From contig CAVVEI010000014.1 of assembly GCA_963747275.1 (NCBI GenBank), positions 72,774-136,773 on the forward strand: a DNA stretch of 64,000 nucleotides, written 5' to 3'. Shown piece by piece: positions 26,075 through 52,854 of this stretch (position 1 is the first letter of the stretch; each line of letters starts with the position of its first letter). A program made the translations under genes and the position numbers. Source of the stretch: an uncultured Actinomycetes bacterium (GTDB lineage: Bacteria; Actinomycetota; Thermoleophilia; RBG-16-64-13). Under the pieces are notes generated by a model that saw nothing but the letters and a program-made list of their open reading frames with translations, was not told where the DNA came from and did no database searches.

Positions 26075-26098
26075 ACAGGAAGGAGGGAGACGACCATC

Positions 26099-27388: not shown

Positions 27389-27401
27389 AGAGGAGAGGAT
27401 C

Positions 27402-29072: not shown

Positions 29073-29076
29073 AGAC

Positions 29077-30594: not shown

Positions 30595-30809
30595 GGGGGC
30601 GCTTGCGCACCCCATACGGCCTAGAACAGTCACAGATGGGCGCTTCGACCGATTCAGTCTGTCACGCGTCCAAAGGTTGCACAAAGCGTTGTTGCGTTGC
30701 CCCCCTATGCGTGAGATTGTGTGATTAGCACGTTCGCCGCGCGGATTCCGTGTTGGGCAGCATAGCCGCCGGCCGTCCTGCCAAGACTGACCGCGAAGGA
30801 GGGCACCAC

Positions 30810-33712: not shown

Positions 33713-33852
33713 GATGTACCGGTCGGTTACGCGGGAACAAGCGCCCCTCCCCACCCCCTCTTGCTGGGGGCGGGGAGCGTGGCGCGTCAAGGGCGGTGAT
33801 AGCTCCCTGGTGACCTGGCCGCATCCTGTCGCAACAAAGGAGCTGTGAGGCA

Positions 33853-35242
33853 ATGACCGCATCACCTGCCAAGATCGACCGTAAGCTAGTCGCCGAACTC
33901 ATGGCGCGCGAGGAGAAGCGCCTAGAGGACGAGACCCCCAAGTCGTACGAGATGTTCAAGCGGGCGTCCAAGTCGCTCGTCAACGGAGTCTCGTCCACCT
34001 ACCAGGCGCGCGATCCCTATCCCCTCTACTTCACCCACGGCAAGGGCAGCAAGATCTATTCGGTCGACGGTCGCGAGATCAGCGACTTTCACAACGGTTT
34101 CGGCTGCATGGTCCAGGGACACGCGCATCCGGCCATAGTCGAGACCATCAAGAAGCGCTGTGAGCTCGGCACCCAGTTCGCCCTGCCCACCGAGGACTCC
34201 ATCATCGTGGCCGAGCATCTGGCCAAGAACTTCCGCCTGCCCAAGTGGCGCTTTGTGAACTCCGGCTCCGAGGCCACCATGGACGCCATCCGCATCGCCC
34301 GCGCCTACACGGGCCGCGACCAGGTGCTCAAGATCTTCGGCTCGTACCACGGCCACCACGACTACGTCATGGTCAGCCTGGGTGTGGCCGACTTCGGCGA
34401 CATCGGCCCCCGAGACAACTACAAGTCCATCTCGTACGGCGCCGGTATCCCCCAGTCGTCCATAGATATGACCTCCGCGGTGCCTTTCAACGACCCAGAG
34501 GCCATGGAAGCCCGCATCGACAGGTTGATCAAAGAAGGGCGCAAGCCGGCCTGCCTGATCATGGAAGCCGCCATGATGAACCTGGGCGTGGTGCTGCCCG
34601 AGCCGGGCTACCTGCAGGCGGTGCGTGACATCACCAAGAAGCACGGCATCGTGCTCATCTTCGACGAGGTCAAGACCGGCATCTGCACGGCTCCCGGTGG
34701 CGCGGTGGAGCGCTTCGGCGTGGTGCCCGACATGGTCACCTTGGCCAAGGCCCTCGCCGGCGGTCTGCCCTCCGGCGCCATCGGCGCCACCGAGGAGGTC
34801 ATGTCGGTGGTGGCGAGCGGCAAGGTCTACCAGGTGGGCACCTACAGCGGCAACCCGCTGGCCATGGCGGCCGCCCGCACCAGCCTGGAGCAGGTCATGA
34901 CCCCCGATGCCTACAAGCACCTGAACTACCTGAACGACCGCCTGATCACAGAGCTGGACGCCATCGGAGCCAAGTACGACTTCCCCGGCTACACGGTGGG
35001 CATCTCGTCCAAGGGCTGCTTCAACTTCTCCTCGGGCAAGATCACCGACTACGAGTCGTTCATCAAGTATCCAGGACGTCGAACTCTGCAACCTGGCCTG
35101 GCTGTACAACATGAACCGCGGCGTGATCATCGCCCCGGGGCGCGAAGAAGAGTGGACCCTGTCGGTGCAGCACACCGACGAGGACATCGACCGCTTCGTG
35201 AACGCCTTTGAAGAGCTGGTCAAGGAAGTGACCACGCTAGCC
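33853..35242 (+). CDS. Class-III aminotransferase (glutamate-1-semialdehyde aminomutase-like subgroup). The frame is broken once near 35071, and no stop codon precedes the next gene.
   Basis: Motifs are FVNSGSEATMDAIRIARAYTGR, DEVKTG and TLAKALAGGLP. ORF 33853-35211 continues in ORF 35111-35776 (QDVELCNLAWLYNMNRGVIIAPGREEEW...FEELVKEVTTLA). The 3' end is set arbitrarily at the next gene's ATG. Confidence 0.7.
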
Positions 35243-36564
35243 ATGGACAACAAGGAGCTCATCGGGCTGCGGGAGGAGAACGTCCCCCGCGGCGTCTACA
35301 ACTACTTCCCCGCCTTTGCCGACCACGCAAAGAACGCGGTGATCACCGATGTCGAAGGCCGGGAGTTCATAGACTTGGCCGGCGGCATAGGCGTTATGAA
35401 CGTCGGCCACTGCCACCCCAAAGTGGTCGAAGCTGTTCAGCGCCAGGCGGAGAGGTTCTCGCACACCTCGTTCAACGTGATGATGTACGAGCCGTACGTC
35501 CGTCTGGCGGAGAAGCTCAACCAGGCCGCTCCGGGCAAGAATCCCGAAGAAGACCATGTTCGTCAACTCGGGCGCCGAGGCCGTGGAGAACGGCATCAAG
35601 ATCGCCCGCTACTACACCGGGCGAGACGCGGTCATCGCCTTCGAGGGCGCTTTCCACGGGCGCACCATGCTGGGCTGACCCTCACCTCCAAGGTGCTGCC
35701 CTACAAGACCGGCTTCGGTCCCTTCGCCCCGAGGTCTACCGCATCCCCTACGCCTACTGTTATCGCTGCCCGGTGAGCGACACCTATCCCGGACTGCGGG
35801 GGGCGCTGCGCCGAGCTTCTGACCGACGCCTTCGAGCAGTATGTGGAGGCCTCTACGGTGGCGGCCGTGATCATCGAGCCGGTGCTGGGTGAGGGCGGTT
35901 TCGTCGCCGCGCCGCCCGAGTACCTGCGGCGCATCAAGCAGATCTGCGAGGACCACGGCATCGTCTTCATCGCCGACGAGATCCAGACCGGCATGGGCCG
36001 CACCGGCAAGTACTTCGCCATCGAGCACGCGGATATAGAGCCCGACCTCTTGCTCTCGGCCAAGTCGCTGGGCTCGGGCTACCCCATCGCCGCGGTCACC
36101 GGACTGGCGGAGATCATGGACTCGCCGCCGCCGGGCTCCATAGGCGGCACGTACGGAGGCAACCCGGTCGCCTGTGCCGCGGCGCTGGCGGTGTTCGACA
36201 TAATCGAGTCGGAGAACCTGCTGACGCGGGCCGAGGCCATCGGCAAGCGCATACGCGCAAGCATGCAGGATCTGCAGGCCAAGTATCCCGTCGTGGGCGA
36301 CGTCCGCGGCTTGGGCGCCATGATGGCCATGGAGCTGGTCGTAGACCGCGACACCAAGCAGCCGGCCGCCGCGCTGGCCAAGGAAGTGCGAAACGGTGCG
36401 TTCGAGCGCGGGGTCCTCTCCCTGCTCGCCGGCGCCGGCGACAACGTGGTCAGGGTGTCTGGTGCCGCTCACCATCGAAGACGAGGTGCTGGAGCGCGGT
36501 CTAGCCGCGAGTCGAGGCCGCGCTGGAGGCAGCGGTCGCCAAGCACGATAGGGACCACCCGTGA
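35243..36564 (+). CDS. Class-III aminotransferase (4-aminobutyrate aminotransferase-like subgroup). The frame is broken about 6 times (35540, 35675, 35731, 35791, 36458, 36510).
   Basis: It starts [62 protein letters not shown]. It then reads [42 protein letters not shown] and [10 protein letters not shown] across several frames. Its stop overlaps GTG 36561. Confidence 0.75.
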
Positions 36565-39238
36565 ACAAGGTGACGCTGACCGTCAATGGCATCAGCCACG
36601 AGGTCAGCGCCGACGCCGACCTGTGCCTGCTGGACTACTTGCGTGACGGGCTGCACCTCACCGGAGCCAAGCAGTCCTGTGACAAGAAGGGCCAATGCGG
36701 TGCCTGCACCGTGATCGTGGACGGCAAGGCCGTACGGTCGTGCCTGAGCAAGGTGGCCAAGCTGGACGGGGCGGACGTAATCACGGTCGAAGGACTGGGC
36801 ACACCCGCCAACCCGCACCTCATTCAAGAGGCCTTCGTGTTGTCCGGGCGCGATCCAGTGCGGCTTCTGCACTCCGGGCATGATCATGGCTGCCAAGGTG
36901 CTGCTGGACCAGACCTTGGACCCCACCGACGAGCAGATCAAGAAGGCGTTGGTGCACAACCTCTGCCGCTGCACCGGCTATGTGAAGATCATCGAAGCGG
37001 TCCGGTTGGCCGGGCAGTTCCTCCGCGGTGAGACGACTCCCGCGCAGGTGCGGCCGGACCCGGACGGGCCCAAGGTGGGAGTCTCGCACCCCCGGCCTTC
37101 GTCGCTGGTCAAGGCCTGCGGGGTGGCTCAGTTCACCGCTGACATAGTGGTGCCGGGAGCGCTGGAGTTGGTGGGAGTCAGGAGCCCCCATCCAGCACGC
37201 TCTCATCAAGGGCATAGACACCACGGCCGCCGAGAATGATGCCGGGCGTGGTGGGCGTGCTCACGGCCAAGGACGTCAAGGGCACCAACCGGCTCAAGTA
37301 CGTCTCTCGACGACCGCCCGATACTGTGCGAGGACAAGGTGCGCTACATCGGCGACCCGGTGGCCGCCGTCGCCGCCCTCACCCGGAACCAGGCAGTGGC
37401 GGCCGCCGCGGCCGTGAAGGTGAGTACGAACTCCTGCCGGTCATCGACACCTTCGAGAAGGCGCTGGCCGCGGACGCCGTGCAGGTGCACGCCGACCGAC
37501 CCAACGTGAGCTTCAGGCAACCCGTTCTCAAGGGCGACGCCGAGAAGGCCTTTGCGGACTCGGCCGTGGTGGTCGAGGCCCGGTTTCGTCACGCAGACCA
37601 ACCACCAGGCTCCTTTGGAGCCGGAACCGGCCGTCGCGTACCTCGAAGGCGAGGGCGAGGACGCTCAGCTGGTCGTGATCGGACGCAGCATCAACATCCA
37701 CAAGCACTTGCAGATGCTGCAAGAAGGTACCGGCTGGGAGAACATGCGCTACGAGGAGGCCTTCTCCGGGGGCCAGTTCGGCATCAAGCTGGACATCACC
37801 TCCGAGGGCATAGCGGCCGTGGCTGCATTGCACTTCCGACGCCCAGTGCGCTACATACCCAGTCTGATAGAGGCCATGCAGATGACCTCCAAGCGGCACG
37901 CCTTCGACATGCAGGTCAAGCTGGGCGCCGACGCTCAGGGCCACCTCACTGCCTACAAGAACCACTTCGTGGCCGACAGCGGCGCATATTGGTCCAACAG
38001 TGACGTGGTGATACTGCGGGCCCTGCACATGCTGTCGGGGTCGTACCACATCCCCAATCTCGATATCTCCGCCACGGTGGTCTACACCAACAACCCGTGG
38101 ACCTCGGCCGCCCGCGGGGCGGGGCCGCCTCAGACCAACTTCGCGCTCGAGAGCGCCATGGACATGCTGGCCCAGAAGCTGGGCATGGACCCCCTGGAGT
38201 TCAGGGTGCTCAACCTGCTCGCTCCCGGGCAGAGCAAAGCGACCGGGCACGTGGTCGAAGAGTGGCCGGTGCTGGGTCTGTGCGAAGCCATCAAGCCGCA
38301 CTACGAGCGGGCCAAGCGTGACGCCCAAGCGGGCAGCACCGACCTGGTCAAGCGAGGCGTGGGAATGGGCACCGGTTCGTTCGGCATCGGGGCCGCCGGC
38401 GACACGGCCACCGTGTCCGTGGAGCTGGACCCGGACGGCGGACTCACCGTCTACGGCGCCGTGGCCGATCCGGGCGAGGGCAACGACTCTATGCTCACCC
38501 AGACCGCCGCGGACATGCTGGACCTGCCGCTGGACAAGGTGCAGGCTGGTCACGCGCGACACCGATCACACCGCGGCCAGCGGCCCGGCGGCCGCCAGCA
38601 GGCTCACCTACATGGCCGGTGGAGCCATGGTGAATGCCATCGAGCAGTTGCAGGCGGCCATGGCCCAGGCAGGTGCGACCAAGGCAGATGCGACTACCTG
38701 CGACCGGCTGAAGCAGGCTGGGCTGAAGACCCGCTACCTGGGCACCAAGAAGACCGGCTACTCCGGTCCGCTCGATCCGCAGACGGGCCAAGGTCCGTCG
38801 TTCGAGTCGCAGGTGCATGCGGTGCAGTTGGTGGAAGTCGAAGTGAACACGCAGACCGGCGCGGTGACCATAGTCAAGATGACTACGGCGGTCGACGCGG
38901 GCACGATCATCAACCCCCTGAACGTCATCGGGCAGCTCGAAGGTGGCATGGACATGGGCGCCGGCTACGCACTGCGCGAGCAGTACGTCGCAGGCCAGAC
39001 CAAGGACTGGAACACCTTCAAGTTCCCCAGCATCCGCACGGCCTTTGATATGGAAGTGATCATCAGAGAGACGCCGCGCAAGTACGGCACCCGGGGCTCG
39101 GTGGGAGTCGGCGAGATGACCATGGTGCCTACCGCCCCCGCGGTGGTGAACGCCATCGAGGATGCCGTGGGCATCCGCGTGACCGAGCTACCGGCGACAC
39201 CGGACAGGATCACGGCCGCTCTCGCGGCCAAAGGGTAG
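36561..39238 (+). CDS. Mop-type aldehyde oxidoreductase, copy 1 (xanthine-oxidase family; fused 2x[2Fe-2S] + Moco domains with no FAD domain). The frame is broken about 7 times.
   Basis: The N-terminus is [15 protein letters not shown]...CDKKGQCGACTV...AIQCGFCTPGMIM...CRCTGY. The Moco part reads HALIKGIDTTAAENMPGVVGVL, TNHQAPLEPEPAVAY and GVGEMTMVPTAPAVVNAI. It is traced through ORFs 36561-37031, 36880-37239, 37236-38003, 37552-39048 and 38318-39238. Confidence 0.8.
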
Positions 39239-39290: not shown

Positions 39291-39632
39291 ATGGAACCGA
39301 CGACCGTTCTGGGCGAGCATTTTCGAGTCGTGGCCGGCAGGAGCCTCCTCTTTGACGAGGAGGGCTTTCTGTGCCACGTGGACGACTGGACCGAGGACGT
39401 CGCCGGAGGGTTGGCGGCGGAGTCGGGCCTGGTGGGGCTGGACGACGCGCAATGGCGGGTGCTCCTATTCTTGCGCGAGTTCTACTATGAGAACGGCCGG
39501 TCTCCGCTCAACCGTAAGATCGTCGAGGGTGTGGGCATGAGTCTGCTGGAGCTGGAGCGCATGTTTCCCGGAGGCATCCGCTCCGGGGCCAAGCGCCTAG
39601 CCGGTCTGCCGAACCCTAGGCGGTGCGCATGA
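39291..39632 (+). CDS. TusE/DsrC-family small sulfur-carrier-like protein (single C-terminal Cys type).
   Basis: Intact 113-aa ORF. The family-typical C-terminus is ...LFLREFYYENGRSPLNRKIV...MFPGGIRSGAKRLAGLPNPRRCA. The penultimate Cys is present, and a Lys occupies the position of the second DsrC Cys. Confidence 0.75.
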   Translation: MEPTTVLGEHFRVVAGRSLLFDEEGFLCHVDDWTEDVAGGLAAESGLVGLDDAQWRVLLFLREFYYENGRSPLNRKIVEGVGMSLLELERMFPGGIRSGAKRLAGLPNPRRCA

Positions 39633-40801
39633 CCGCCGGCGCACTCAGCCGTGACCTGATCTATCTGGACAACGCGGCCACCTCGTTCCCCAAGCCCAGC
39701 CAGGTCTTGGAGCAGATGGTCGAGACCTACGCCCGCCTGGGGGTGTCCCCCGGCCGCGGGACGTATGACCTGGCCATGGAGGCCGCGGAGTTCGTGACCC
39801 ACGCCCGCGAGCAGGTGACGGCGTTCTTCGGCTCGAGCGACCCGGACAGGGCAGTCTTCGCGGCGAGCGCCACCGACGCGCTCAACTTGGCCATCCAAGG
39901 GCTGGTGAGCGAGGGCGACCACGTGGTCTCCACCCGGCTGGAGCACAACTCGGTCTTGCGGCCCCTGTTTCACCTGAAAGAGCGGGGCAGCATAGACTAC
40001 GACTTGGCGCCCTTCGACGGCGCCGGGCTGGTGGACCCCAGCGACATAGACAGGGCTATCCGGCCGAACACCAGATTGGTGGTGTTGTGCCACGGCTCCC
40101 AGGTGCTGGGCACCGTGCAGCCGGTGGGAGAGATCGCGGCCGTCTGCGCCGCGCACGGCGTCCCGCTGCTGCTGGACGCCGCTCAGACCGCGGGCCAGGT
40201 GCCCGTCGATATGCAGGCGTGGGGCGTGAGCGCCGTGGCCTTCTCGGGGCACAAGGCGCTGCTGGGGCCTTCGGGCATAGGGGGCTTGGTGGTGACTCCG
40301 GACCTGGAGGTGCGGTCCACTCGCTTCGGGGGCACCGGCTTGGAGTCGCACAGTCTGCGCCACACCCAGTCGTACCCGCAGCGGCTGGAGGCGGGGACGG
40401 CCAACCTGTTGGGCATCATCGGCCTCTCCCTCGGTCTGGACTATCTGCAGCGGCTCGGACTCAACGAGTCGCGCGGGCGCGAAATGGCCCTCATACGCCG
40501 CCTGCGCGAGGGGCTTGTCTCCACCCCCGGCGTGAGCGTGCTCAGTCCGGCACCGCGTGATGGCGACCTGCCCTTGCTCACCTGCACCGTGGACGGCATG
40601 GACCCCGAAGACGTAGGCGCTATCCTAGATGCCGACTACGGCATAGCCGCACGGACGGGGCTGCACTGTGCGCCCTTCGTGCATGCCGACCTGGGAGTGG
40701 ACCCCGTGGGCTCGGTCCGCTTCAGTCTGGGGCACGGGAACAGGGACGAAGATATCGATAGGGCTGTCGAGGCCATGGCACAGATAGCCGGAAGGAAGTG
40801 A
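39629..40801 (+). CDS. Class-V PLP enzyme, cysteine desulfurase (SufS/CsdA/NifS-like).
   Basis: ATG 39629 overlaps the TusE-like stop (ATGA). Features are YLDNAATSFP, the PLP-Lys motif SGHKALLGPSGIGGL and the active-site loop RTGLHCAP. The reading is intact. Confidence 0.85.
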   Translation: MTAGALSRDLIYLDNAATSFPKPSQVLEQMVETYARLGVSPGRGTYDLAMEAAEFVTHAREQVTAFFGSSDPDRAVFAASATDALNLAIQGLVSEGDHVVSTRLEHNSVLRPLFHLKERGSIDYDLAPFDGAGLVDPSDIDRAIRPNTRLVVLCHGSQVLGTVQPVGEIAAVCAAHGVPLLLDAAQTAGQVPVDMQAWGVSAVAFSGHKALLGPSGIGGLVVTPDLEVRSTRFGGTGLESHSLRHTQSYPQRLEAGTANLLGIIGLSLGLDYLQRLGLNESRGREMALIRRLREGLVSTPGVSVLSPAPRDGDLPLLTCTVDGMDPEDVGAILDADYGIAARTGLHCAPFVHADLGVDPVGSVRFSLGHGNRDEDIDRAVEAMAQIAGRK

Positions 40802-40857: not shown

Positions 40858-40901
40858 GGGCGCCATAGAAAACCAGCGAACGCGTGAAGGGACCGGGGAA
40901 G

Positions 40902-43673
40902 ATGGCACAGCTATTCTGGCTCGATATCAATGGGATCCCGCGGACCGTGTTGGCCAACCCAGACGATAGTCTGGCCAAGGTTCTTCGGGAGCAACTGGGG
41001 CTGACCGGCACCAAGGTCGGCTGCGGTGGGGGACAGTGCGGCGCCTGCTCGGTGATACTTGACGGCAAGGTGGTGCGCTCGTGCATCACCAAGATGGCCA
41101 AGGTGCCCGAAAACGCCCGAGTGGTGACCATCGAGGGCATCGGGACTCCCGAGAAGCTCCATCCGCTGCAGGTGGCGTGGATGAACTACGGGGGCGTGCA
41201 GTGCGGCTTCTGTTCGCCGGGCTTCATAGTCTCGGCCAAGGGCCTCTTGGACGAAAACCCCAAGCCCACCCGCGAAGACGTGCGTGACTGGTTCCAGAAG
41301 CACCACAACCTCTGCCGTTGCACCGGCTACAAGCCCCTGGTAGACGCGGTCATGCAGGCCGCCAAGGTCCTGCGGGGCGAAGCCACGCTGGAGCAACTGA
41401 GCGCCAACTCCAAGCCCGACAAAGACGGCCGCATCTGGAACACCTACTATCCGCGCCCGTCGGCACTGTCCAAGGTGACAGGCACCTGCGACTACGGGGC
41501 CGACCTCGGCATCAAGCTGCCCAAGGACGCTCTTCACATCGCTTTGGTCCAGCCCAAGGTCTCGCACGCCAACATCCTCTCTATTGATACCAGCGAGGCT
41601 GAGAAGATGCCCGGCGTCCAGAAGGTGGTCACTCACAAGGACGTCACCGGCACCAACCGCATCTCGGGCCTGCTCACCTATCCCTGGAGCAAGTGCGACG
41701 GCTTCGAGCGGCCCATCCTGAGCGACACCAAGATCTTTCAGTACGGTGACGTGGTGGCCATGGTGCTGGCCGACACCAAGCAGCAGGCGGAGGCTGCGGC
41801 CGCCAAGGTCAAGGTCGGGCTGGAGAAGCTCCCCGCCTACATGAACTGCCTTGATGCTGCCGCTGACGACGCCATAGAGATCCACCCCGGCACGCCCAAC
41901 GTGTTCTTTGAAGTCGACCTCAAGAAGGGCGACCACGAGAAGGTGGACGAGCTGATCAAGAGCGCGCCGTACGTGGTGGAGAACGACTACTACACCCAGC
42001 GGCAGCCGCACATGACCATAGAGCCCGACGTGGGCTTTGCCTACGTCGACACAGACGGCGTGGTCACGGTGCACTCCAAAAGCATCGCCCTCTACATGGC
42101 TCACCTGCAGATCTGCGAAGGCCTGGGCCTGGCCGAGGACAAACTGCGGCTGATACAGAACCCGCAGGGCGGCAACTTTGGCTACAAGATCGGGCCGACG
42201 CTGGAGGCGCTCTGCGCCGTGGCCACCATGGCCAGCGGCCACCCCTGCTACCTGGAATACAGCTACCACCAGCACATGGTGTACACGGGCAAGCGCGCCC
42301 CGTGCTTCTCGCACATGAAGGTCGCCGCCGACAAGCACGGCAAGCTCATGGCCATGGACTTCGACCTGATCATGGACCACGGCGCCTACTCCGAGTTCGC
42401 GGACGAGCTGCTTACCAAGGCCTGCCGCTACAGCGGCGGCGGCTACTTCGTACCCGCCCTGCGCGGCCACGGGCGTACCGCCTTCACCAACCACACCTGG
42501 GTCTCGGCCTTCCGGGCCTACGGCGGACCGCAGGGAGCCTTCTCCACCAACCTCATCATGGACGAGTTGGCGGAGAAGATGGGGCTGGACACCTGGGAGC
42601 TCATGAACCTCAACGTGCTCCGCGACGGCGACACTCTGGGCACCGGCGAGGTACAGGACGTGTATCCGCTGCCCAAGCTGCTGCAGATGATCAAGCCCGG
42701 CTACGACGAGGCGGTGGCCCGCCGCAAGAAGGAGAGTACGCCCGAGAAGAAGCGGGGCGTGGGTCTGGCAGTGGGCATCTACAACGTGGGCAACGACGCC
42801 GCCGACCTGGCCGACTCGGACATAGAGCTCAACCCCGACGGTTCGGTGACCATCTACAACACCTGGGAGGACCCGGGCCAGGGCGCCGACATAGGCACTC
42901 TCACCACGGCCCACGAGGCGCTGCGCCCGTTGGGGCTGGCGCCCGACCAGATACACCTGTACATGAACGACACCGCGCGCTGCCCCGACAGCGGGGCCGC
43001 CGCGGGCAGCCGCTCCCAGTACATGGTGGGCAACGCAATAGTCGACTCGTGCAATCAACTGATCAAGGCCATGACCAAGGCCGACGGAACCTACCGCACC
43101 CATGCCGAGATGGTCAGAGAGGGCCTGGAGACCAAGTACCACGGCCACTTCTCCGCCGCCCCCCTGTGCGGCACCCCGGACGAGAAGACCTTCCAGTTCA
43201 GCCCCCACGGCCCGGTGCCCACCATGCAGTACGGCATCTTCATGGCCGAGGTAGAAGTGGATGTCGCTACCGGCAAGACTCAGGTGCTCAAGATGAGGCT
43301 TGACTCCGACATAGGCGTCATCGCCAACCGGCAGGCAGTCGAAGGCCAGATGTACGGCGGGCTGGTGCAGGGCATAGGTCTGGCACTGTCCGAAGACTTC
43401 GACGACATCGCCAAGCACACCAACCTCATAGCGGGCGGCATCCCCTACATCAAGGATGCTCCGGATGCTCTGGAGCTCAACTTCCTGGAGACGCCCCGGC
43501 CGACGGGCCCCTTCGGAGCCGGTGGTTGCGGCGAGCTACCCCTGTATGCACCGCACGCCGCCATCATCAACGCCATCTACCACGCCTGCGGAGTGCGTAT
43601 GACCAACCTGCCCGCTCGTCCCGAAAAGGTGCTCGCGGCTCTCAAGTCCAAGGAGCTACTTGGTAGACCCTAG
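40902..43673 (+). CDS. mop: Mop-type aldehyde oxidoreductase, copy 2. It is intact and closely resembles the Desulfovibrio gigas MOP architecture.
   Basis: Uninterrupted ORF 40884-43673; I prefer ATG 40902 as the start. Features are CGGGQCGACSV, GGVQCGFCSPGFIVSAKGLL, CRCTGYKPLVDAV, HANILSIDTSEAEKMPGV and PFGAGGCGELPL. No FAD-binding domain lies between the FeS and Moco parts. Confidence 0.9.
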   Translation: MAQLFWLDINGIPRTVLANPDDSLAKVLREQLGLTGTKVGCGGGQCGACSVILDGKVVRSCITKMAKVPENARVVTIEGIGTPEKLHPLQVAWMNYGGVQCGFCSPGFIVSAKGLLDENPKPTREDVRDWFQKHHNLCRCTGYKPLVDAVMQAAKVLRGEATLEQLSANSKPDKDGRIWNTYYPRPSALSKVTGTCDYGADLGIKLPKDALHIALVQPKVSHANILSIDTSEAEKMPGVQKVVTHKDVTGTNRISGLLTYPWSKCDGFERPILSDTKIFQYGDVVAMVLADTKQQAEAAAAKVKVGLEKLPAYMNCLDAAADDAIEIHPGTPNVFFEVDLKKGDHEKVDELIKSAPYVVENDYYTQRQPHMTIEPDVGFAYVDTDGVVTVHSKSIALYMAHLQICEGLGLAEDKLRLIQNPQGGNFGYKIGPTLEALCAVATMASGHPCYLEYSYHQHMVYTGKRAPCFSHMKVAADKHGKLMAMDFDLIMDHGAYSEFADELLTKACRYSGGGYFVPALRGHGRTAFTNHTWVSAFRAYGGPQGAFSTNLIMDELAEKMGLDTWELMNLNVLRDGDTLGTGEVQDVYPLPKLLQMIKPGYDEAVARRKKESTPEKKRGVGLAVGIYNVGNDAADLADSDIELNPDGSVTIYNTWEDPGQGADIGTLTTAHEALRPLGLAPDQIHLYMNDTARCPDSGAAAGSRSQYMVGNAIVDSCNQLIKAMTKADGTYRTHAEMVREGLETKYHGHFSAAPLCGTPDEKTFQFSPHGPVPTMQYGIFMAEVEVDVATGKTQVLKMRLDSDIGVIANRQAVEGQMYGGLVQGIGLALSEDFDDIAKHTNLIAGGIPYIKDAPDALELNFLETPRPTGPFGAGGCGELPLYAPHAAIINAIYHACGVRMTNLPARPEKVLAALKSKELLGRP

Positions 43674-46029
43674 AGAGATCCAGCGGCTTGAAGACCTCTG
43701 CATCCAGGACCATGCGCCCTGGTGCGAAGCGGTCTGCCCTCTTCATGTCGACGCCAGGGGCATGCTGGAAGCGCTCGCCCGCGGTGACTTTCGGGCCGCC
43801 GCGGGCATCTACAGCAAGAAGGCGCCGTTCCCGGGCATACTCAGCCGAATCTGCGATCAACCTTGCCGCGCCGCCTGCAAACGAGGGGAGGTGGGCGAGC
43901 CCATCAGCATCGGGCTGCTCGAGAGAAGCTGTGCCGACTACGCCGGTTTTGCCCCACAAGCGGTGGGCAACGGCTCGCCTAGATCACGCCGCGTCGCAGT
44001 TGTCGGTGGCGGTGCCAGCGGCTTGACGGCCGCGCTGGAGTTGGACAAGAGACACCACGAAGTGAGCTTGTTCGAGGCATCCGACCGTCTGGGAGGGAGT
44101 CTGCGGCTCTTCCCACCCGATGTGCTCCCGCCCGACATCCTCGATGATGAGATCGGCCGCCTGACTAAGGGCAGCGTGAACACGTGCACGGGCACGCACG
44201 TAGGGCGAGATACCACGATCGCCGAATTGCTGGAGCAGTTCGACGCGGTCTACCTGGGCGTCGGCCGCGCGTCAACGGTCGCTGACGTTGGGGGGCTGGA
44301 CCCTGTCGTATCTCGAGTGATCGGCGGCGCAATCGACCCACTGACCTTCGCTACTTGCGAGCCGGGGGTCTTCGCCGGCGGCAGTCTGCGCTGTGGTGAG
44401 GCGAAGCGTGAGGCAGCGGTAGCCCACTCGCCCGTGTTGTCGATGGCTGACGGCCGCCGGGCGGCCATATCCATAGATCGCTTCTTGAAGGGAGAGTCCC
44501 TTGGCTCGCAGCGGGAGAACGAAGGGCCCTACACCACCTGTTTGTACACCAGTCTAGAAGGGATCGAGCCCAGCAAGGCGGTCCGCCCCGCGGGACCCGG
44601 CCTGGCTTACGGCAAAGACGAGGCGATCGCAGAAGCGCAGCGCTGTTTGCAGTGCGAATGCTTGGAGTGCGTGAAGGCCTGTACCTACCTGGACCACTTC
44701 AATGAATACCCTGGTAAGTGCATCCGCAAAGTGGTCAAGAACATCACCAGCCTGCCGGGCAAGAGCTATCGTACGCACACCAAGTTCATCAACGCGTGCA
44801 GCCTGTGCGGACTCTGCGGCGTCGTCTGCCCCACCGATCTCAATATGGCGGTCGTGAACCGCGGTGCAAGGCACATCATGTGGGACAAGGGCTTCATGCC
44901 GCCGGCAGTACACGATTTCGCGCTTCGCGACATGGAGTCCAGCAATGCCGAGACGAATGCCATAGCGCGCAACCAGCCGGGACATGCGTCAAGCTCCTAC
45001 CTCTTCTTCCCTGGCTGCCAGCTGACCGCTTCTGCCCCGGACCACGTGGAGCGGACCTACGCGTACCTCACCCACACGTTGGGCGGAGGGGTGGGGCTCA
45101 TGCTGGGTTGCTGCGGCGCCCCCGCCGCCTGGGCGGGAAGGCGGGAGCTTTTTCAAGACGTGCTCGACGCTTTCGAGCGGAGATGGCAGCAGATGGGACG
45201 ACCGCGGGTGATACTAGCCTGCCCGACCTGCTCCCTTATGTTCAAACAGGGCCTTTCTGATATCCCTGCCGTCTCGCTATGGGAGGTGCTGGACGCTGAG
45301 GGTATACCCGCCGACTCTCCGCGGGGTCGTGGGGAAACGCTTGCGCTTCACGACTCGTGCACCGCCAGATCGGCGCCGGAAATGCAGGACAGCGTGCGAC
45401 GCATCGTGCAGAAGCTCGGCTATCAGATCGAAGAACTCCCCTATAACCGTGACAGGACCAAGTGCTGCGGATACGGTGGCCTCGTCTATCAGGTCAACCA
45501 GGAGTTGACCGAGAAGATCATCACGTCCCGCATCGGAGAGAGCCCGACGGACTATCTGACCTATTGCACGAATTGTCGGGATTTCTTTGCAGGGAAGGGC
45601 AAATCCTCATACCATGTGCTTGACCTCGTCTTCGATGGTCGCAAGGAGGGGACTCCGGCCAGAACCGGCCCGACTTTCTCCGAACGCAGAAAGAACCGGC
45701 GCGAACTGGCCGGCAAGATGCTCACCGAGTTGTGGGGAGAGCCGATGTCTGAACCTGAGGGACACACGCTACTCAAGGTGCGGGTGGCGCCAGACGTGGC
45801 TGCCAAGATGGAGAAGGACTTCATCCTCCTTGACGACGTCAAGGCAGTCATCCACCAGGCGGAAAAGACGGGCAAGAAGCTTGCGGTCGGTTCGACAGGG
45901 CGGCTCGTAGCTCACCTTCGCCCGTATATCGTCACCTACTGGGTCGAATACGCAAGAGACGGAGATGAGTACGAGGTCTTCAACGCCTATTCCCATCGCA
46001 TGCAGATCGTCAAGGACGCGGAGCAATGA
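43660..46029 (+). CDS. Multidomain redox protein: a GltD-like N-terminal FeS + FAD domain (NAD(P)H domain missing), a 2x[4Fe-4S] ferredoxin, two CCG (HdrD/GlcF-like) domains and a ~130-aa C-terminal domain of unknown function.
   Basis: Intact 789-aa ORF. A TTG start lies 4 nt after AAGGAG and overlaps the mop stop by 14 nt. Motifs are CEAVCPLH...RICDQPCRAAC, VAVVGGGASGLTAA, GVFAGGS, CLQCECLECVKAC...CSLCGLCGVVCP, FFPGCQL...GCCG and HDSCT...KCCGYGG. Confidence 0.75.
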   Translation: MVDPREIQRLEDLCIQDHAPWCEAVCPLHVDARGMLEALARGDFRAAAGIYSKKAPFPGILSRICDQPCRAACKRGEVGEPISIGLLERSCADYAGFAPQAVGNGSPRSRRVAVVGGGASGLTAALELDKRHHEVSLFEASDRLGGSLRLFPPDVLPPDILDDEIGRLTKGSVNTCTGTHVGRDTTIAELLEQFDAVYLGVGRASTVADVGGLDPVVSRVIGGAIDPLTFATCEPGVFAGGSLRCGEAKREAAVAHSPVLSMADGRRAAISIDRFLKGESLGSQRENEGPYTTCLYTSLEGIEPSKAVRPAGPGLAYGKDEAIAEAQRCLQCECLECVKACTYLDHFNEYPGKCIRKVVKNITSLPGKSYRTHTKFINACSLCGLCGVVCPTDLNMAVVNRGARHIMWDKGFMPPAVHDFALRDMESSNAETNAIARNQPGHASSSYLFFPGCQLTASAPDHVERTYAYLTHTLGGGVGLMLGCCGAPAAWAGRRELFQDVLDAFERRWQQMGRPRVILACPTCSLMFKQGLSDIPAVSLWEVLDAEGIPADSPRGRGETLALHDSCTARSAPEMQDSVRRIVQKLGYQIEELPYNRDRTKCCGYGGLVYQVNQELTEKIITSRIGESPTDYLTYCTNCRDFFAGKGKSSYHVLDLVFDGRKEGTPARTGPTFSERRKNRRELAGKMLTELWGEPMSEPEGHTLLKVRVAPDVAAKMEKDFILLDDVKAVIHQAEKTGKKLAVGSTGRLVAHLRPYIVTYWVEYARDGDEYEVFNAYSHRMQIVKDAEQ

Positions 46030-46253
46030 GTCCCGAGGGATCCGCACCGCCCGGAGCACGCGAAGAACCGGCCACCGTCACGTGCGCCACCCACGGCGTC
46101 CCACTGGAGCTAGCGAAGATCGACGTGACATATCAGGGGCATACCTTCCCGATCGACGTGCTCTGCTGTCCCGTTTGCGGATTGGCTTTGATTCCCGAAG
46201 AGCTTGTCAAGGGCAGGATGTTCGAGGTCGAGCAGACCCTCGAGGAGAAGTGA
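46026..46253 (+). CDS. Small (75 aa) zinc-ribbon-like protein of unknown function.
   Basis: ATGA overlap with the preceding gene. It has a C-x2-H ... CCPVCG arrangement (VTCATHGVPLE...IDVLCCPVCGLALIPEE) and an acidic C-terminus. Confidence 0.5.
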   Translation: MSPEGSAPPGAREEPATVTCATHGVPLELAKIDVTYQGHTFPIDVLCCPVCGLALIPEELVKGRMFEVEQTLEEK

Positions 46254-47190: not shown

Positions 47191-47245
47191 GTCGATCAGG
47201 CGCGGGGCAGAGCCCCTGCCGCCTTCAGTTCCTACGTCCGGCGGG

Positions 47246-50006
47246 CTACTTGGCCTTGAGGGCCGCGAGCACCTTCTCGGGCCGCGCCGGCAGGTGGGTG
47301 ATCCTAGCCCCGCAGGCGTGGTAGATGGCGTTGATGATGGCCGCGTGCGGCGACGTCAGTGGGATCTCGCCGCAGCCGCCCGCGCCAAACGGCCCCGCCG
47401 CACGCGGGGTCTCGGTGAACGTGACCTCGAAGGCGTCGGGGATGTCCTTGATGTACGGCATGCCGCAGGCGATCATGTTGGTGTGCTTCTCTAGGTCTTC
47501 GAAGTCCTCCGACAGCGCCAGTCCGACTCCCTGCGACATCCCTCCGTACATCTGGCCCTCCACCGCCTGTCTGCTGGCGATGACACCCACGTCGGCGTTC
47601 ATAACCAGTTTGACGACGGTCGTCTTGCCGGTCTTGGTATCGACTTCCACCTCAGCCATGAACACCCCGTACTGATAGGTGGGCACCGGGCGCAAGGCAA
47701 ACTGGAACGTCTCCTGGTCGGGCGGGCTGCACAGATGAGCTGCGCTGTAATGTCCTTTGTACTTGGTGGGGATGCCCTCCTTGACCATCTCCTCATAGGT
47801 GCGGTACTTGCCGCCGCCCTTGTCCATCGCCTTCAGGAGTTGCTCACAGGCGTTGATTATGGAGTTGCCGACCATGAACTGAGAGCGGCTGGCGCCGGCC
47901 GGACCGCTGTTGGGACACAGGGCAGTGTCGTTCTGGACAAGACGTATCTGCTCGGGGACCAGCTTCAGCGGCCTCAGGGCTTCGTGGGCCGTGACCAGAG
48001 TACCGAGGTCGCCGCCCTGCCCAGGGTCCTCCCAGGTGTTGAAGACCGTGACCGAGCCATCCGCGTTCAGCTCGATGTCCGTGCCGGCCTCGTCGGCGGT
48101 ATCGACGCCCGCGTTGTAGATGCCTACCGCCAGACCGACGCCCGCGCTTCTTGTCAGGGGTGGACTCCTTCTTGCAGCGCTCCACTGCCTCGTCGTATTT
48201 GGGCTTCATTATCTCGAGCAGCTTCGGCAGCGGGAACACGTCGGGCACTTCGCCGGTGCTCACGGTGTCGCCTGGATGCAGCACGTTCCGGTTCATGAAC
48301 TCCCAGGTGTCCAGTCCGCACTTCTCCGCCAGCTCGTCCATGAGCACGTTGGTGGCGAACTCCGACTGAGGAGCTCCGAAGGCGCGGAAGGCGGAGCCGA
48401 ACGCGTGGTTGGTAAAGGTGACGCGCCCTCTCCCCCTGATAGCCGGTAGGTGGTAACCGCCGCCCGCGTAGCGGGTCATCTTGGTCGCAAGGTCGTCACC
48501 GAATTCCGAGTACGGGCCATGGTCCAAGAGCCCGTCGAAATCGAGGGCCACCAACTTGCCGTCGTTGTCGGCGGCGGCTCTAAGTCTCATGGTCGCCGGT
48601 GAACGCTTGCCGGTGTAGGTGATGTGCTGATAGTAGCTGTACTGCATGTGGCAGGGCCTGCCTGTGGCCATAGTCGCGATGGCGCAATAGGCCTCCAGCG
48701 TCGGGCTCAGCTTGTAGCCGAAGTTGCCGCCTTGCGGGTTCATGATGAGCCGCAGTTTCTCGGGCTTGAGCCCGAGGCCCTCGCAGAGCATGAAGTGGTG
48801 GATGTACAAGGCGATGCTCTTGGAGTGAATAGTGACCACTCCGTCTTGGTCGATGTAGGCGAAGCCCACATCCGGCTCGATGCTCAGGTGCGGCTGCCGC
48901 TGCACATAGAACGAGTCCTCTACGGCATAGGGAGCGCTCTTGATCAGTTCGTCCACCTTCTCGTGTGCGCCCTTCTTGAGGTTGCACTCAAAGAACACGT
49001 TGGGAGTCCCGGGATGGATCTCGATGGCATCATCTTTGGCGGCGGCCGGGCCGTCCATGTAGGTGGGCAGTGACTCCAACTCCACCTCCACTCTCGCCGC
49101 CGCTGCTTCCGCCTGCGCCTTGGTTTCGGCCGCTACGACGGCGAAGACATCACCGAACTGAAAGACCTTCTTGTCGCAGAGGAGGGGCCGGTCGTAGCCG
49201 TCACCTTTGTTCCACGGGAAGATGACCAAGCCGAAGCTCCTGTTGGTGCCCACGACGTCCTTGTGGGTCATGACCTTGACGACACCGGGCATCTTCTCGG
49301 CTTCACTCGTGTCTATGGAGACGATGTTCGCGTGGGACAGCTTCGACTGAGCCAAGGCAAGGTGCAAGGTATCCTTCGGCATCTTGATGCCCAGGTCGGC
49401 GCCGTAGTCGACCGTGCCGGTAGCTCTGGCGACGCCCGAAGGGCGAGGATAGTACGTGTTCCAGATCCTGCCGTCCTTATCCGGCTTGGAATTGACGCTG
49501 AGGTCTTCGATGGTGGCTTCGCCGCGCATGACCTTGGCTGCCTCCATCACCGAATCGACCAGGGGCTTGTACCCGGTGCAGCGGCAGACGTTGCGGTGCT
49601 TCTGGAACCAGTCGCGCACCTCCGCGCGAGTCGGCTTCGGGTTTTCATCTAGCAGGCCTTTGGCGGAGACGATGAACCCCGGAGAACAGAAGCCGCACTG
49701 TACCCCGCCGTAATTGATCCACGCCACCTGAAGGGGGTGGAGCTTGTCCGGGGCGCCTATCCCTTCGATGGTGACGATCTCGGCATTCTCCGGCACGCGC
49801 TCCATCTTGGTGATGCAGGAGCGAACGACCTTGCCGTCCAGCAACACCGAGCACGCGCCACACTGCCCCGCGTCACAGCCGACCTTGGTACCGGTCAGCC
49901 CCAACTGCTCCCGAAGCACCTTGGCGAGACTGTCCTCAGGATCGGCGTACACGGGTCTTGATACTCCGTTGATGTTCAGGATCACGCGCTTCGTCATGTG
50001 TGCCAA
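47246..50006 (-). CDS. mop: Mop-type aldehyde oxidoreductase, copy 3, a close paralog of copy 2 in inverted orientation. The frame is broken once near 48142.
   Basis: ORF 47844-50006 (MAHMTKRVILNINGVSRPV...KKESTPDKKRG) continues in the frame of ORF 47246-47875 (VGLAVGIYNAGVDTADEAGTDIELNADGSV...PEKVLAALKAK). The lesion sits in the CCC run at 48141-48143. Confidence 0.85.
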
Positions 50007-50041
50007 CCCCTTCTGAATCGCACCTGTGTACTCCGCCAGTG

Positions 50042-51413
50042 CTACTTGAGGACGTCGATCATGATCTCGGTGGCCTTCATAGCATAGTCCTTGGGAATGG
50101 TCAGCGGCGGCATGAAACGGAACACGTTGCCGTAGCGGCCGCAGGGAGTCACGATGATGCCTCGGTTCAGGAGTTTCATGGCTATCTCGCCCACTCGCTC
50201 CGGCGCAAGCGGAACTTTGGTCTTCTGATCCTCTACCAACTCGACCCCGATCATAAGGCCTCGGCCCCGGACATCGCCGATGGTCTTCACCGTCTTCATG
50301 GCCTCGGTGAGGGTGCCCCTGATCTCTTCACCGAGCTTGGTGGCGCGGCCCATGAGGTCAGCCTCGGGGTCGGTGATGAGGTCGATGTTGGTCATGCAGA
50401 CCTCGCATCCCAGAGCGTTGCCGGCGAAGGTCGACGGTTGCGATCCTTCGGAGAGGCTCTTTTCGAAGTCGGCTCGGTAGGTGAGTCCGGCCATGGGCAG
50501 ATCGCCACCCATACCCTTGCCCCAAGTGAGCATGTCCGGCTTCACGCCCACGTGCTCGATACACCACATCTTGCCGGTGCGGCCTGCACCTGACTGCACT
50601 TCGTCGGCCACGTACAGGCACCCGTATTTCTCGCAGGCCTGTTTGATGATCTGAAAGAACTCGGGCGGGGGAGCGACGTAGCCGCCTTCGCCCTGTTGGG
50701 ACTCGATGATGACCGCGGCCACGTCGTCGGACGCCGTGTAGGGGGTGTTGAGCACGTAGTCTACGTACTTGCCGCACTGCACGTCGCAGGCAGGATAGGT
50801 CATGTTGAAGGGGCAGCGGTAGCAGTAGGCATAGGGCAGATGCTGAACCCCGGCTATGAGAGGACCCCAGCCGTGCCGGTAGTTATATCCGGTAGTCAGG
50901 GCCGAGGTACCGCACCACACGCCATGGTAGGCGCCGTGGAAGGCCAAGATCTGGGTGCGGCCCGTGTGGCGCCGCGCAGAACTTGATGGCCGTCTCCACG
51001 GCGTCGGAGCCGGCCTGGAAGAACGAGGTGTGACAGTTCCCCCGCAGGCCTTCGGGCATTACTTCCGACACCTTCTTGGCCAACTCGATGCGCTTAGGGT
51101 TGGTGCTGTCGGTGGTGTGCATGATCACGCCGCTTTGGCGCTGGATGGCTTCCAAGATCTTGGGATGGCCCCGCCCCACGGCGTTCACCGCCACTCCCGC
51201 GGCCATGTCTATGTAAAGGTTGCCGTCGGCGTCCTTGACGGTGGCACCCTTGCCATGCTCCAGGATGACCGGGGACCCACCGCCCCCGCGGGTGAAGGCT
51301 TCGTACTTGCGGGATTCTTCAAGGAGGGCGGCGACCTTCGGCCCCGGCACTTGGCAGACCATCTGGGGAGCACCGGCGAACGACAGCTGCATCAGTTCAG
51401 CTTCAGAGATCAT
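50042..51413 (-). CDS. Class-III aminotransferase (GabT-like subgroup). The frame is broken once near 50979.
   Basis: ORF 50883-51413 (...FQAGSDAVETAIKF) continues in ORF 50042-50947 (ARRHTGRTQILAFHGAYHG...DEVQSGAGRTGKMW...TWGKGMGGDLP). It lies 35 nt upstream of mop copy 3. Confidence 0.8.
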
Positions 51414-51465: not shown

Positions 51466-52587
51466 TCAGTCCTTCAAGTCCGCGATGTGGCACTCGACGT
51501 ACTCCATGCCTACCCCTTCAGCCACCGCCCGGCATACCAACTCGCCTCTCAGGACGTTGAGGCCTTTGAAGAGAGCGGGGTCGGCCGCCATGGCCTTCTT
51601 GAAGCCCAGATTGGCCAGTTTGGACACGTAGGGGAAGGTCGCGTTGGTGAGCGCAAAGGTCGAGGTCCGCGCGACGCTGCCGGGCAGATTGGCCACGCAG
51701 GCCAGAGTGACTCCGTCCATATCGATGACCGGGTCCTCGTGCGTCGTGGGAACGGCGCCCTCCACGCACCCCCCTTGATCGATGGCCACGTCTACGATCA
51801 CCGAGCCCTTTCGCATCCGCGCAATCATGGACTTGGTGACTACCTTGGGGGCCCGCGCGCCCGGGACGAGCAGCCCGCCTATGACCAGGTCCGCTTCCGC
51901 GACCGCTCTCTCTACGTTGGGCTCGTTCGAGGCGAGCACCGTAAGCCGCCCCCCGAGCACGTCTGCCAGATACCGGAGCCGATCCAGGTTGATGTCTAGG
52001 ATGGTGACGTTGGCACCCATGCCCAGGGCGATCTTGGCAGCGTTTATGCCCACCACCCCGCCGCCGATGATGGCCACCTCAGCCGGGGGAGTACCTGGCA
52101 CCCCACCCAGGAGGACGCCACTGCCGCCGTTCTCTTTCTGCAACCAGTGGGCCCCTATCTGCACGGAGAGCTTACCGGCGACTTCACTCATGGGGGTCAA
52201 GAGAGGCAGCGAACCGTTGTCCAACTGAACGGTCTCGTAGGCGATACCGATGACCTTGCGCTCAAGGAGCGCCTTTGTGAGATCGGGGGCCGGCGCTAGG
52301 TGCAGATATGTGAACAAGATCTGGCCCTCGCGCAAGAGCGGGTACTCCTGTGGTAACGGCTCCTTGACCTTGACTATCATCTGCGCTTCGGCGAAGACCT
52401 CTTGGGCCGTGGGGCGGATAGCGGCCCCTGCTGCTAGGTACTCTTGGTCGGAGAAACCTGAACCTTCTCCGGCCGATTTCTGAACAACGATGGTATGGCC
52501 GTCCCGGGCAAGGCTTCTTACACCCGCGGGCACCACCGCTACGCGATACTCATGGTTCTTTACCTCTTTGGGCACGCCGATGATCAT
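51466..52587 (-). CDS. ald: Alanine dehydrogenase.
   Basis: It starts [23 protein letters not shown], with GGAGGG 7 nt upstream of ATG 52587. The reading is a full-length, intact Ald-type sequence ([20 protein letters not shown]). The ORF's 24-codon 5' extension is rejected. Confidence 0.9.
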
Positions 52588-52854
52588 CCTCTTGCCCTCC
52601 GATCGACTCGTGCGTGAAGTCACGGTAGCTACCCTTTTGTACGGTTGGCTAACACACATATACTACCGCGCCTCTACGTCGTCAAGCAATCCGCTAAGGC
52701 CGTCGGCGCTGCCGCCCCTTCGAAGCTCGGTCAGAGACGCGGGGCTCTTCCGTCGGTGTTTAGCCGTTCGAGTAACTCCGGCGGCGCATGTGCTAGTATT
52801 CCAAGAGAAGGACCGCTATCAGGGTCAAGCCTGGGAACGTGAGGGGGACTGACG

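Follow-up and report, generated by a model that had tools for sequence, protein, structure and literature searches.

A flavin, ferredoxin and CCG-domain fusion protein and its zinc-ribbon neighbour as a candidate redox module of Mop-type aldehyde oxidoreductases

In a 64,000-nucleotide stretch of contig CAVVEI010000014.1 from an uncultured Actinomycetes bacterium (assembly GCA_963747275.1), which at its whole length is called here the window, the gene of a Mop-type molybdenum aldehyde oxidoreductase (AOR) is followed directly by two genes encoding a protein of 789 amino acids (aa) with flavin adenine dinucleotide (FAD), iron-sulfur (Fe-S) and CCG domains and a zinc-ribbon protein of 75 aa. We lean, though not strongly, to the view that the 789-aa and 75-aa proteins are a dedicated redox module of Mop which ends at an HdrD-like site, because of their near-obligate linkage to Mop, the translational coupling of the genes in the window, and a cofactor chain without pyridine-nucleotide site. 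The preliminary description of this DNA, made from the sequence alone, had called the large gene and its partner the least explained element of the window; this was not sustained, as neither protein is an orphan and both are full-length members of curated NCBIfam families.

Gene order and linkage of the Mop trio

The genes of the trio and the signal preceding the second of them are as follows.

40884..43673, + strand: Mop-type molybdopterin aldehyde oxidoreductase, 929 aa (NCBIfam, Pfam and PDB matches)
43650..43655, + strand: Shine-Dalgarno-like AAGGAG within the 3' end of mop (read from the sequence)
43660..46029, + strand: 789-aa FAD/Fe-S/CCG protein, DVU1558 homologue, NF045663 (list of open reading frames, translation, hidden Markov model)
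46026..46253, + strand: 75-aa zinc-ribbon protein, DVU_1557 family, DUF7479 (list of open reading frames, hidden Markov model)

The open reading frame (ORF) of the 789-aa protein begins with TTG, 4 nucleotides (nt) behind AAGGAG, and the predicted N-terminus (M)VDPREIQ agrees with the N-termini of the homologues. As the preliminary description had stated, the large gene overlaps the mop stop codon (TAG), the overlap being 14 nt, and the 75-aa protein with its Cys/His zinc ribbon is coupled downstream through ATGA, which is common to the stop of the 789-aa ORF and the ATG start of the next one; the latter statement is supported by the ORFs and by the Pfam match to DUF7479. Both ORFs are intact, although several neighbouring genes of the window show frameshift-like breaks. 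The gene 3' of the trio encodes a short-chain dehydrogenase (Pfam).

The window Mop scored 1467 bits with NF045668 against a cut-off of 1100 and carries the Pfam domains Fer2, Fer2_2, Ald_Xan_dh_C and MoCoBD_1/2, which corresponds to two [2Fe-2S] clusters and the molybdenum cofactor (Moco) without FAD domain. Its matches to the AOR structures from Desulfovibrio desulfuricans (1dgj_A) and D. gigas (1sij/1vlb) reached 1154 and 1116 bits, respectively, scores which make it an orthologue of these two crystallised enzymes. The large protein obtained 942 bits with NF045663 against a cut-off of 530, with residues 5-784 on profile positions 3-758 of 759, and the small one obtained 72.2 bits with NF045645 against 60 and 76.2 bits with DUF7479 (PF24292) against 27 (E = 2e-21). 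NF045663 is named pyridine nucleotide-disulfide oxidoreductase/dicluster-binding protein ("diclust_near_Sec") and NF045645 is the "DVU_1557 family redox protein". The counterparts in D. vulgaris are DVU1558 for the large and DVU1557 for the small protein, beside the Aor DVU1559, and the NCBIfam names DVU_1557, DVU_1556, DVU_1555 and DVU_1553 denote one and the same cluster. Judged by these profile assignments both proteins and their neighbourhood are already catalogued as curated NCBIfam equivalogs, and the window copy is a minimal member.

Relatives of the large protein occur in at least 572-582 species genomes of a species-level genome collection and in at least six phyla, including Actinomycetota, Chloroflexota, Bacillota, Desulfobacterota, Acidobacteriota, Spirochaetota and others, and the closest ones among the matches listed belong to Actinomycetota with 57-70% identity. 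The loci for the comparison of neighbourhoods were the best-scoring 80 per scan and not a random sample, and a second family scan with distant members as query returned mostly the same loci again. Of the resulting 101 unique loci 86 have room for Mop, which in 84 of these immediately precedes the large gene in the same orientation and in the other two is adjacent but divergent; the small protein follows the large one directly in 99 of 100. The reverse test, which started from 56 loci of Mop orthologues, found the large protein directly downstream in 41 of the 47 with room, and each of these 41 has a match to the small protein (S75) further downstream; the Mop loci with the pair include those of Desulfovibrio piger ATCC 29098, D. 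desulfuricans, D. falkowii and Acetobacterium paludosum. The functional belonging of the pair to Mop, which had been suggested before, is strongly supported by these counts, and the outcome which the preliminary description had named as speaking against its proposal, a large protein mostly devoid of mop neighbours, did not occur.

In three loci (L002, L010 and L015) two complete or partial copies of the trio were seen within one stretch of 10-18 kilobases (kb). The large proteins of such double-copy loci are only 34-36% identical, which points to an old paralogy of the whole module. No in-frame TGA that could specify selenocysteine was present at conserved positions of the small, large and Mop homologues in 86 loci, and the stops seen in this check were true gene ends or frameshifts.

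Architecture of the large protein and of its partner

The following parts were delimited in the 789-aa protein.

43696..43944, + strand: NfnB/GltD/DPD-type Fe-S domain, aa 13-95 (Pfam Fer4_20, E = 7e-22; alignments to NfnA 9n5u_A and 9bov_A)
43981..44268, + strand: FAD beta-alpha-beta unit and first part of the FAD subdomain, aa 108-203 (alignments to NfnA, NfnL, NfnB and GltD; Pfam NAD_binding_8 and DAO)
44269..44367, + strand: 33-aa linker in place of the NAD(P)H-binding domain, aa 204-236 (alignment jump, conservation, model confidence)
44368..44496, + strand: C-terminal FAD motif GVFAGGS and the next helix, aa 237-279 (9n5u_A residues 456-503; helix 258-277 of the model)
44632..44844, + strand: dicluster ferredoxin-like module, aa 325-395 (Pfam Fer4_17 at 328-395, E = 9e-10)
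44998..45246, + strand: CCG domain 1, aa 447-529 (Pfam CCG, E = 3.5e-15; similarity to Mycobacterium smegmatis EtfD 9ojn)
45340..45594, + strand: CCG domain 2, aa 561-645 (second Pfam CCG stretch; aligned to 9ojn_A residues 496-709)
45622..46026, + strand: family-specific C-terminal domain, aa 655-789 (no Pfam or PDB match; conservation; model)

The N-terminal Fe-S domain has the conserved cysteines C14, C22, C26, C65, C69 and C73 and the invariant E88. The FAD subdomain is marked by VAVVGGGASGL with GGGASG at 116-121, the acidic residue E139, LGG and AVYLGVG, together with a Pfam FAD/NAD Rossmann match at aa 111-148, and it is closed by GVFAGGS at 236-242, where Ser takes the place of the Asp that usually follows GG. 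The GltD-type Fe-S motifs and the FAD fold which had been read at the N-terminus are therefore real by the evidence of Pfam Fer4_20 and of the Nfn/GltD alignments.

The preliminary description had also stated that the NAD(P)H-binding domain is missing, only about 25 residues being left between AVYLGVG and the last FAD motif. The first part of this statement stands, and the second needs correction to 33 residues, which lie between the end of AVYLGVG (aa 202) and the start of GVFAGGS (aa 236). In the alignment to NfnA of the Thermococcus Nfn-ABC complex (9n5u_A) residues 21-203 of the protein correspond to 106-290 of the chain and residues 224-279 to 456-503, with about 165 residues missing, and the same spacing amounts to 13-40 aa (median 31) in all 113 aligned family members. 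All GltD/Nfn-type NCBIfam models stop matching at about residue 205 and score far under their cut-offs (TIGR01316, 137 versus 472 bits). A second, NAD(P)H-binding Rossmann domain was found neither in the alignment nor in the 113 homologues, so that the proposal is not refuted by an intact NAD(P)H domain. The Rossmann fold which has been retained is, by alignment, that of FAD, because strong alignments span the Fe-S domain and the FAD subdomain without interruption and strand beta-2 ends in the nearly invariant E139. Thioredoxin reductase alignments of 30-47 bits suggested the NAD(P)H fold instead; they were overruled by the contiguous Nfn/GltD alignments of up to 223 bits, and the matches to the NADPH domain of thioredoxin reductase are regarded as generic fold similarity.

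The ferredoxin module contains C329xxC332xC334xxC337xxxC341 and C380xxC383xxC386xxxC390P, and these nine cysteines are invariant in 113 sequences. Both CCG motifs of the type CX(n)CCX(n)CXXC are complete with five invariant cysteines each, namely C453, C484, C485, C521 and C524 in the first (C453...C484 C485 G...C521xxC524) and C567, C602, C603, C636 and C639 in the second (C567...C602 C603 G...C636xxC639). Altogether 25 cluster-type cysteines (6 N-terminal, 9 in the ferredoxin module and 10 in the CCG domains) are kept in 111-113 of the 113 homologues. Thus the 2x[4Fe-4S] ferredoxin module with two CCG domains, as described earlier, was recovered by Fer4_17, CCG and the invariant cysteines. 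The closest families to this half by sequence are TfrB (E = 2e-12) and LdhH (E = 9e-11), its scores lying far under their cut-offs. A separate ferredoxin-plus-2xCCG protein (429 aa, GlcF/GlpC-like), which adjoins a GlcD-like FAD_binding_4 protein, is encoded elsewhere in the window at 26099-29072 (+), and its identity with the CCG half of the large protein is only 21%.

The AlphaFold model built from the family alignment has a mean predicted local distance difference test score (pLDDT) of 90.1 and a predicted template modelling score (pTM) of 0.84, and pLDDT falls below 50 only at aa 206-212, within the linker, and at aa 251-253. When the whole model was searched with Foldseek, its first half matched NfnA of Nfn-ABC (9bov, 9n5u), StnC (8oh5), NfnI-L (5jca), NfnB (4ylf), GltD and DPD, while the ferredoxin-plus-CCG half matched M. 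smegmatis EtfD (9ojn). No membrane segment was detected in the 789-aa protein, the maximum of the 19-residue Kyte-Doolittle average being 1.5.

These comparisons place the protein between two known groups. With NfnB/NfnL, NfnA of Nfn-ABC, StnC, GltD and the N-terminus of DPD it shares a homologous Fe-S domain and FAD subdomain (90-223 bits with the family profile), and with NfnA of Nfn-ABC also the RCLxCxC motif after the flavin module; it differs from the Nfn/GltD systems in the loss of the NAD(P)H domain and in the fusion to CCG domains in place of a partner subunit or Fdh-like domain. Because the NAD(P)H domain is absent the large protein is not a member of the GltD/Nfn group. HdrD (HdrC plus HdrB), TfrB, GlpC, GlcF, LdhH and EtfD likewise have a ferredoxin module followed by two complete CCG motifs, and for TfrB, LdhH and EtfD (9ojn) the similarity in sequence or structure is weak but significant. 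Unlike the HdrD/TfrB/LdhH type, the 789-aa protein has neither a membrane segment nor a nearby membrane partner gene and is fused to the flavin module and to a novel C-terminal domain. None of the Hdr-specific NCBIfam models exceeded its cut-off, and as the scores are far under those of the HdrD type the large protein is not filed as HdrD.

The C-terminal domain of 135 aa is free of cysteine and has W692, D726, T759, W761, Y764, Y777, H779 and R780 as strongly conserved residues, and in the model a long helix is followed by the order beta-alpha-alpha-beta-beta-beta. Pfam gave no match beyond about aa 650 and none to this domain even at E = 10, the PDB sequence search with the domain returned nothing, and Foldseek with a separate model of it (pLDDT 80) found nothing below E = 0.001, which agrees with the earlier remark that a domain of about 130 aa could not be assigned. 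The best Foldseek matches are weak and fall on toxin folds of the RelE/ParE/HigB/MqsR kind (E = 0.04-0.5, TM-scores 0.3-0.5), and the order of secondary structures is the same as in the RelE/ParE/MqsR toxins. A zinc ribbon is here the coupled partner of a domain with RelE order, and the N-terminal domain of the MqsA antitoxin is likewise a zinc ribbon; the structural matches being non-significant, the resemblance may be fortuitous, or the two may be a toxin-antitoxin pair that was exapted. When 1.84 billion representatives were searched with the domain by phmmer, it turned up in 740 representative clusters, and in the full-length matches it nearly always closes a protein of 750-800 aa at the C-terminus. 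The many shorter matches also end with the domain and look like fragments, so the domain appears to be private to the large-protein family.

In the 75-aa protein the predicted metal knuckles are C20xxH23 and C48xxC51G (nt 46083-46178), and they are followed by a conserved C-terminal helix ending in LEEK. Homologues share the pattern CxxC...CPxCG and the helix ending (E/D)VE(K/Q)xLE(D/E)K, and the first knuckle is CxxC in most relatives and CxxH in the window and its actinobacterial relatives, which argues for a metal site and against a redox disulfide. In two predicted metagenomic proteins, P0171 (806 aa) and P0224 (856 aa), the C-terminal domain runs on in frame into the small protein, and these fusions support a physical association of the large and small proteins. 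The zinc-ribbon cysteines of P0224 are partly replaced by His or lost and its C-terminal helix (...QVELALEDK) is retained; the helix of the small protein may matter more than the metal site. A third candidate, P0031, was considered as a fusion of Mop with the large protein and was rejected as an out-of-frame stretch truncated at both ends.

Proposed electron route, acceptor and rival explanations

The D. gigas AOR contains two [2Fe-2S] clusters and Moco and is devoid of the FAD domain of its xanthine oxidase relatives, and a flavodoxin has only been "proposed" as its external acceptor (PMC3877041). If the pair is the redox module of Mop, the aldehyde would be oxidised at the molybdenum centre of Mop and single electrons would pass via its two [2Fe-2S] clusters into the 789-aa protein. 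There the NfnB-type [4Fe-4S] pair, the flavin without NAD(P)H site and the dicluster ferredoxin would lead them to the HdrD/HdrB-like CCG pair, which would hand two electrons to a final acceptor, most likely a disulfide or comparable small oxidant and not NAD(P)+. The small protein would be a bound subunit seated on the family-specific C-terminal domain. That the pair binds Mop, which way the electrons flow and what accepts them are inferences from the domain architecture and gene linkage, and the disulfide end-point, taken by itself, is less likely than not. The presumed role, a flavin exit for electrons after the second [2Fe-2S] cluster, would be analogous to that of the FAD subunit of the XdhB/CoxM type. 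The fold is unrelated, Pfam finding no FAD_binding_5 or CO_deh_flav_C domain in the 789-aa protein, which in contrast to this subunit carries far more Fe-S clusters and lacks an NAD+ site.

Several observations weigh against a dedicated redox module of Mop. The Mop of D. gigas was purified and crystallised without extra subunits (PMC3877041), and any complex of Mop with such a partner must be loose or transient. DVU1558 appears in a list of cysteine-rich/Fe-S proteins as one of "unknown function" (PMC3114432), and no functional study was found in the searchable literature for DVU1557, DVU1558 or the combination of Mop with HdrD/CCG, the Aor of D. vulgaris being identified as DVU_1559 (PMC10920352). 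Five of the 47 Mop orthologue loci are without the partner within 6 kb, and the two other Mop-like genes of the window have no partner genes adjacent. Besides, a set of further genes, called here the cassette, comes after the trio in most loci, four of them in 72-77 of 85 loci each, and the module could serve that pathway and not bulk aldehyde oxidation. The partnerless orthologues (L158, L160, L180, L193 and L202) have 46-58% identity; L180, from Treponema, has no partner pair within 6 kb behind its Mop yet a full downstream cassette, which shows that cassette and partner pair are separable in both directions.

The genes found downstream of the trio by ORF clustering and NCBIfam, with their frequencies, are given below.

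Downstream of the trio, 74/85 loci: DVU_1556-family methyltransferase
Downstream of the trio, 74/85 loci: DVU_1555-family C-GCAxxG-C-C protein
Downstream of the trio, 77/85 loci: radical S-adenosylmethionine (SAM) (seleno)protein TrsS
Downstream of the trio, 72/85 loci: DVU_1553-family adenylating ligase
Downstream of the trio, 50/85 loci: XdhC-type AOR maturation factor

Homologues of TrsS, DVU_1556, DVU_1555, DVU_1553 and XdhC are absent from the 64-kb window. The preliminary description of the neighbourhood was right as to the trio and overlooked this downstream cassette of most genomes, of which the window has no copy. As the trio persists where cassette genes are absent, including the window, gene content indicates that the trio is the invariant core and the cassette a frequent addition. 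In comparison with the DVU1558/DVU1557 system the window has the same gene order (Mop, large, small) and the same cysteine patterns except in the first knuckle, which is CxxH; it differs also in having no cassette and in the clade-specific genes of a desulfurase and a TusE-like protein upstream. TrsS (NF045646) was reportedly described by Haft and Tolstoy in 2025, according to a passage of a 2026 review.

Radical SAM enzymes require a reductant, and the trio might supply low-potential electrons to TrsS, or reduce an intermediate, in concert with the DVU_1556, DVU_1555 and DVU_1553 proteins. The frequency of the cassette, which follows the trio also in Desulfovibrio, is consistent with this, as is the NCBI family name "diclust_near_Sec" taken from that neighbourhood, where "near_Sec" points to the neighbouring TrsS. 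The trio is, however, intact without the cassette in the window and in L150, L152, L155, L156, L159, L183 and L195, and the large protein is linked to Mop in 98% and to the small protein in 99% of cases compared with 59-91% for the cassette genes, so a service to TrsS is considered unlikely. There is a slimmer chance that electrons are bifurcated: the [2Fe-2S] cluster of Mop would feed the NfnB-type flavin with single electrons, as MvhD feeds HdrA, and the flavin would split each pair, one branch running by way of the N-terminal [4Fe-4S] clusters to ferredoxin or flavodoxin and the other through the ferredoxin-plus-CCG part to a disulfide. Mop with both partners would then be an electron-bifurcating aldehyde oxidoreductase of many anaerobes, in which an HdrA-like flavin, HdrC and HdrB are united in a single chain. 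In favour of this, the flavin module is homologous to the bifurcating flavin subunit NfnB/NfnL and has a separate Fe-S branch on either side of it in the sequence; in its cofactor motifs, among them ten invariant CCG cysteines, the second half is equal to HdrC together with HdrB, and a pyridine-nucleotide site is absent. All this is argued from architecture alone; aldehyde oxidation has a potential low enough for ferredoxin reduction without bifurcation, and in the closest structural matches, NfnA of Nfn-ABC and StnC, the flavin module is said to be the entry point of NADPH and not the bifurcating site.

The remaining explanations involve the two genes which lie just upstream of Mop and overlap each other by 10 nt.

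39291-39632, + strand: DsrC/TusE-like protein (Pfam, NCBIfam)
39623-40801, + strand: class-V aminotransferase/cysteine desulfurase (Pfam, NCBIfam)

In a role in maturation or reactivation the CCG site would serve the assembly or re-activation of the Mop molybdenum cofactor by reducing oxidised sulfur, for example the persulfide or disulfide form of a sulfur carrier or the dithiolene in an oxidised state. XdhC-type and MoeA-like genes are frequent neighbours, the desulfurase and TusE-type carrier are close by in the window, and the inactive D. gigas AOR regains activity with strong reductants (PMC3877041). Yet a protein with flavin and about six clusters is elaborate for such a step, sulfur-relay genes are near the trio in only 3-8 of the 101 loci, and the D. 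gigas enzyme does not depend on a sulfido ligand (PMC3877041), which makes this role quite improbable.

It is even less probable that the CCG domains pass aldehyde-derived electrons to the disulfide or persulfide form of the DsrC/TusE-family protein, as the preliminary description had proposed; this proposal is not supported. CCG proteins such as DsrK act on DsrC, and a gene of the family is present in the window, three genes upstream and not four as had been counted (the order is TusE-like, cysteine desulfurase, Mop). However, such a gene accompanies the trio in only 3 of the 101 loci and an adjacent cysteine desulfurase in 8, and the pair of both was seen essentially in the closest actinobacterial relatives of the window (L003/L150 and L004/L184). 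The window protein is of the single-cysteine TusE type, ending in ...GLPNPRRCA with one cysteine of the C-terminal arm and missing the second cysteine of true DsrC, and the gene overlap with the desulfurase points to sulfur relay. From its distribution the TusE/desulfurase pair looks like a clade-specific sulfur relay and not a conserved acceptor, and it may supply sulfur for molybdenum cofactor synthesis.

The remainder of the window and biological meaning

Two more genes of the Mop/xanthine dehydrogenase family are present in the window. That at 47234-50012 (-) is 69-73% identical to the intact Mop and is split in two ORFs near 48141-48181, and that at 36561-39238 (+) is 32-50% identical and is broken over four or five frames. 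Genes of class-III (omega) aminotransferases stand beside them at 33853-36646 (+) and 50042-51413 (-), several of these being split. That so many neighbours are broken would be explained by indel errors in a long-read assembly or by real pseudogenes. The regions 25115-35211 and 51466-52659 have the appearance of an amine/amino-acid catabolic island with amino-acid permease, saccharopine dehydrogenase, aminotransferases, an NAD-dependent aldehyde dehydrogenase (29077-30594) and an alanine dehydrogenase (51466-52659, -). The transaminases of this island would generate aldehydes that Mop-type enzymes oxidise.

The value added by the window copy is small, as it is a minimal and cassette-free example, while the question raised by the family is general, namely which protein is the real redox partner of Mop and what role is left to an NfnB-type flavin in the absence of NAD(P)H. 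The Mop enzyme, as the D. gigas AOR, is a textbook molybdenum enzyme, and the pair is a concrete candidate for its missing redox partner. If a dedicated redox module of Mop is the true function, no flavin module of the NfnB/GltD type would have been shown before it to work in the absence of a pyridine-nucleotide site. If, in addition, the CCG end reduces a disulfide, aldehyde oxidation would be tied to thiol/disulfide metabolism in acetogens, syntrophs and sulfate reducers as well as in anaerobic members of Actinomycetota and Chloroflexota.

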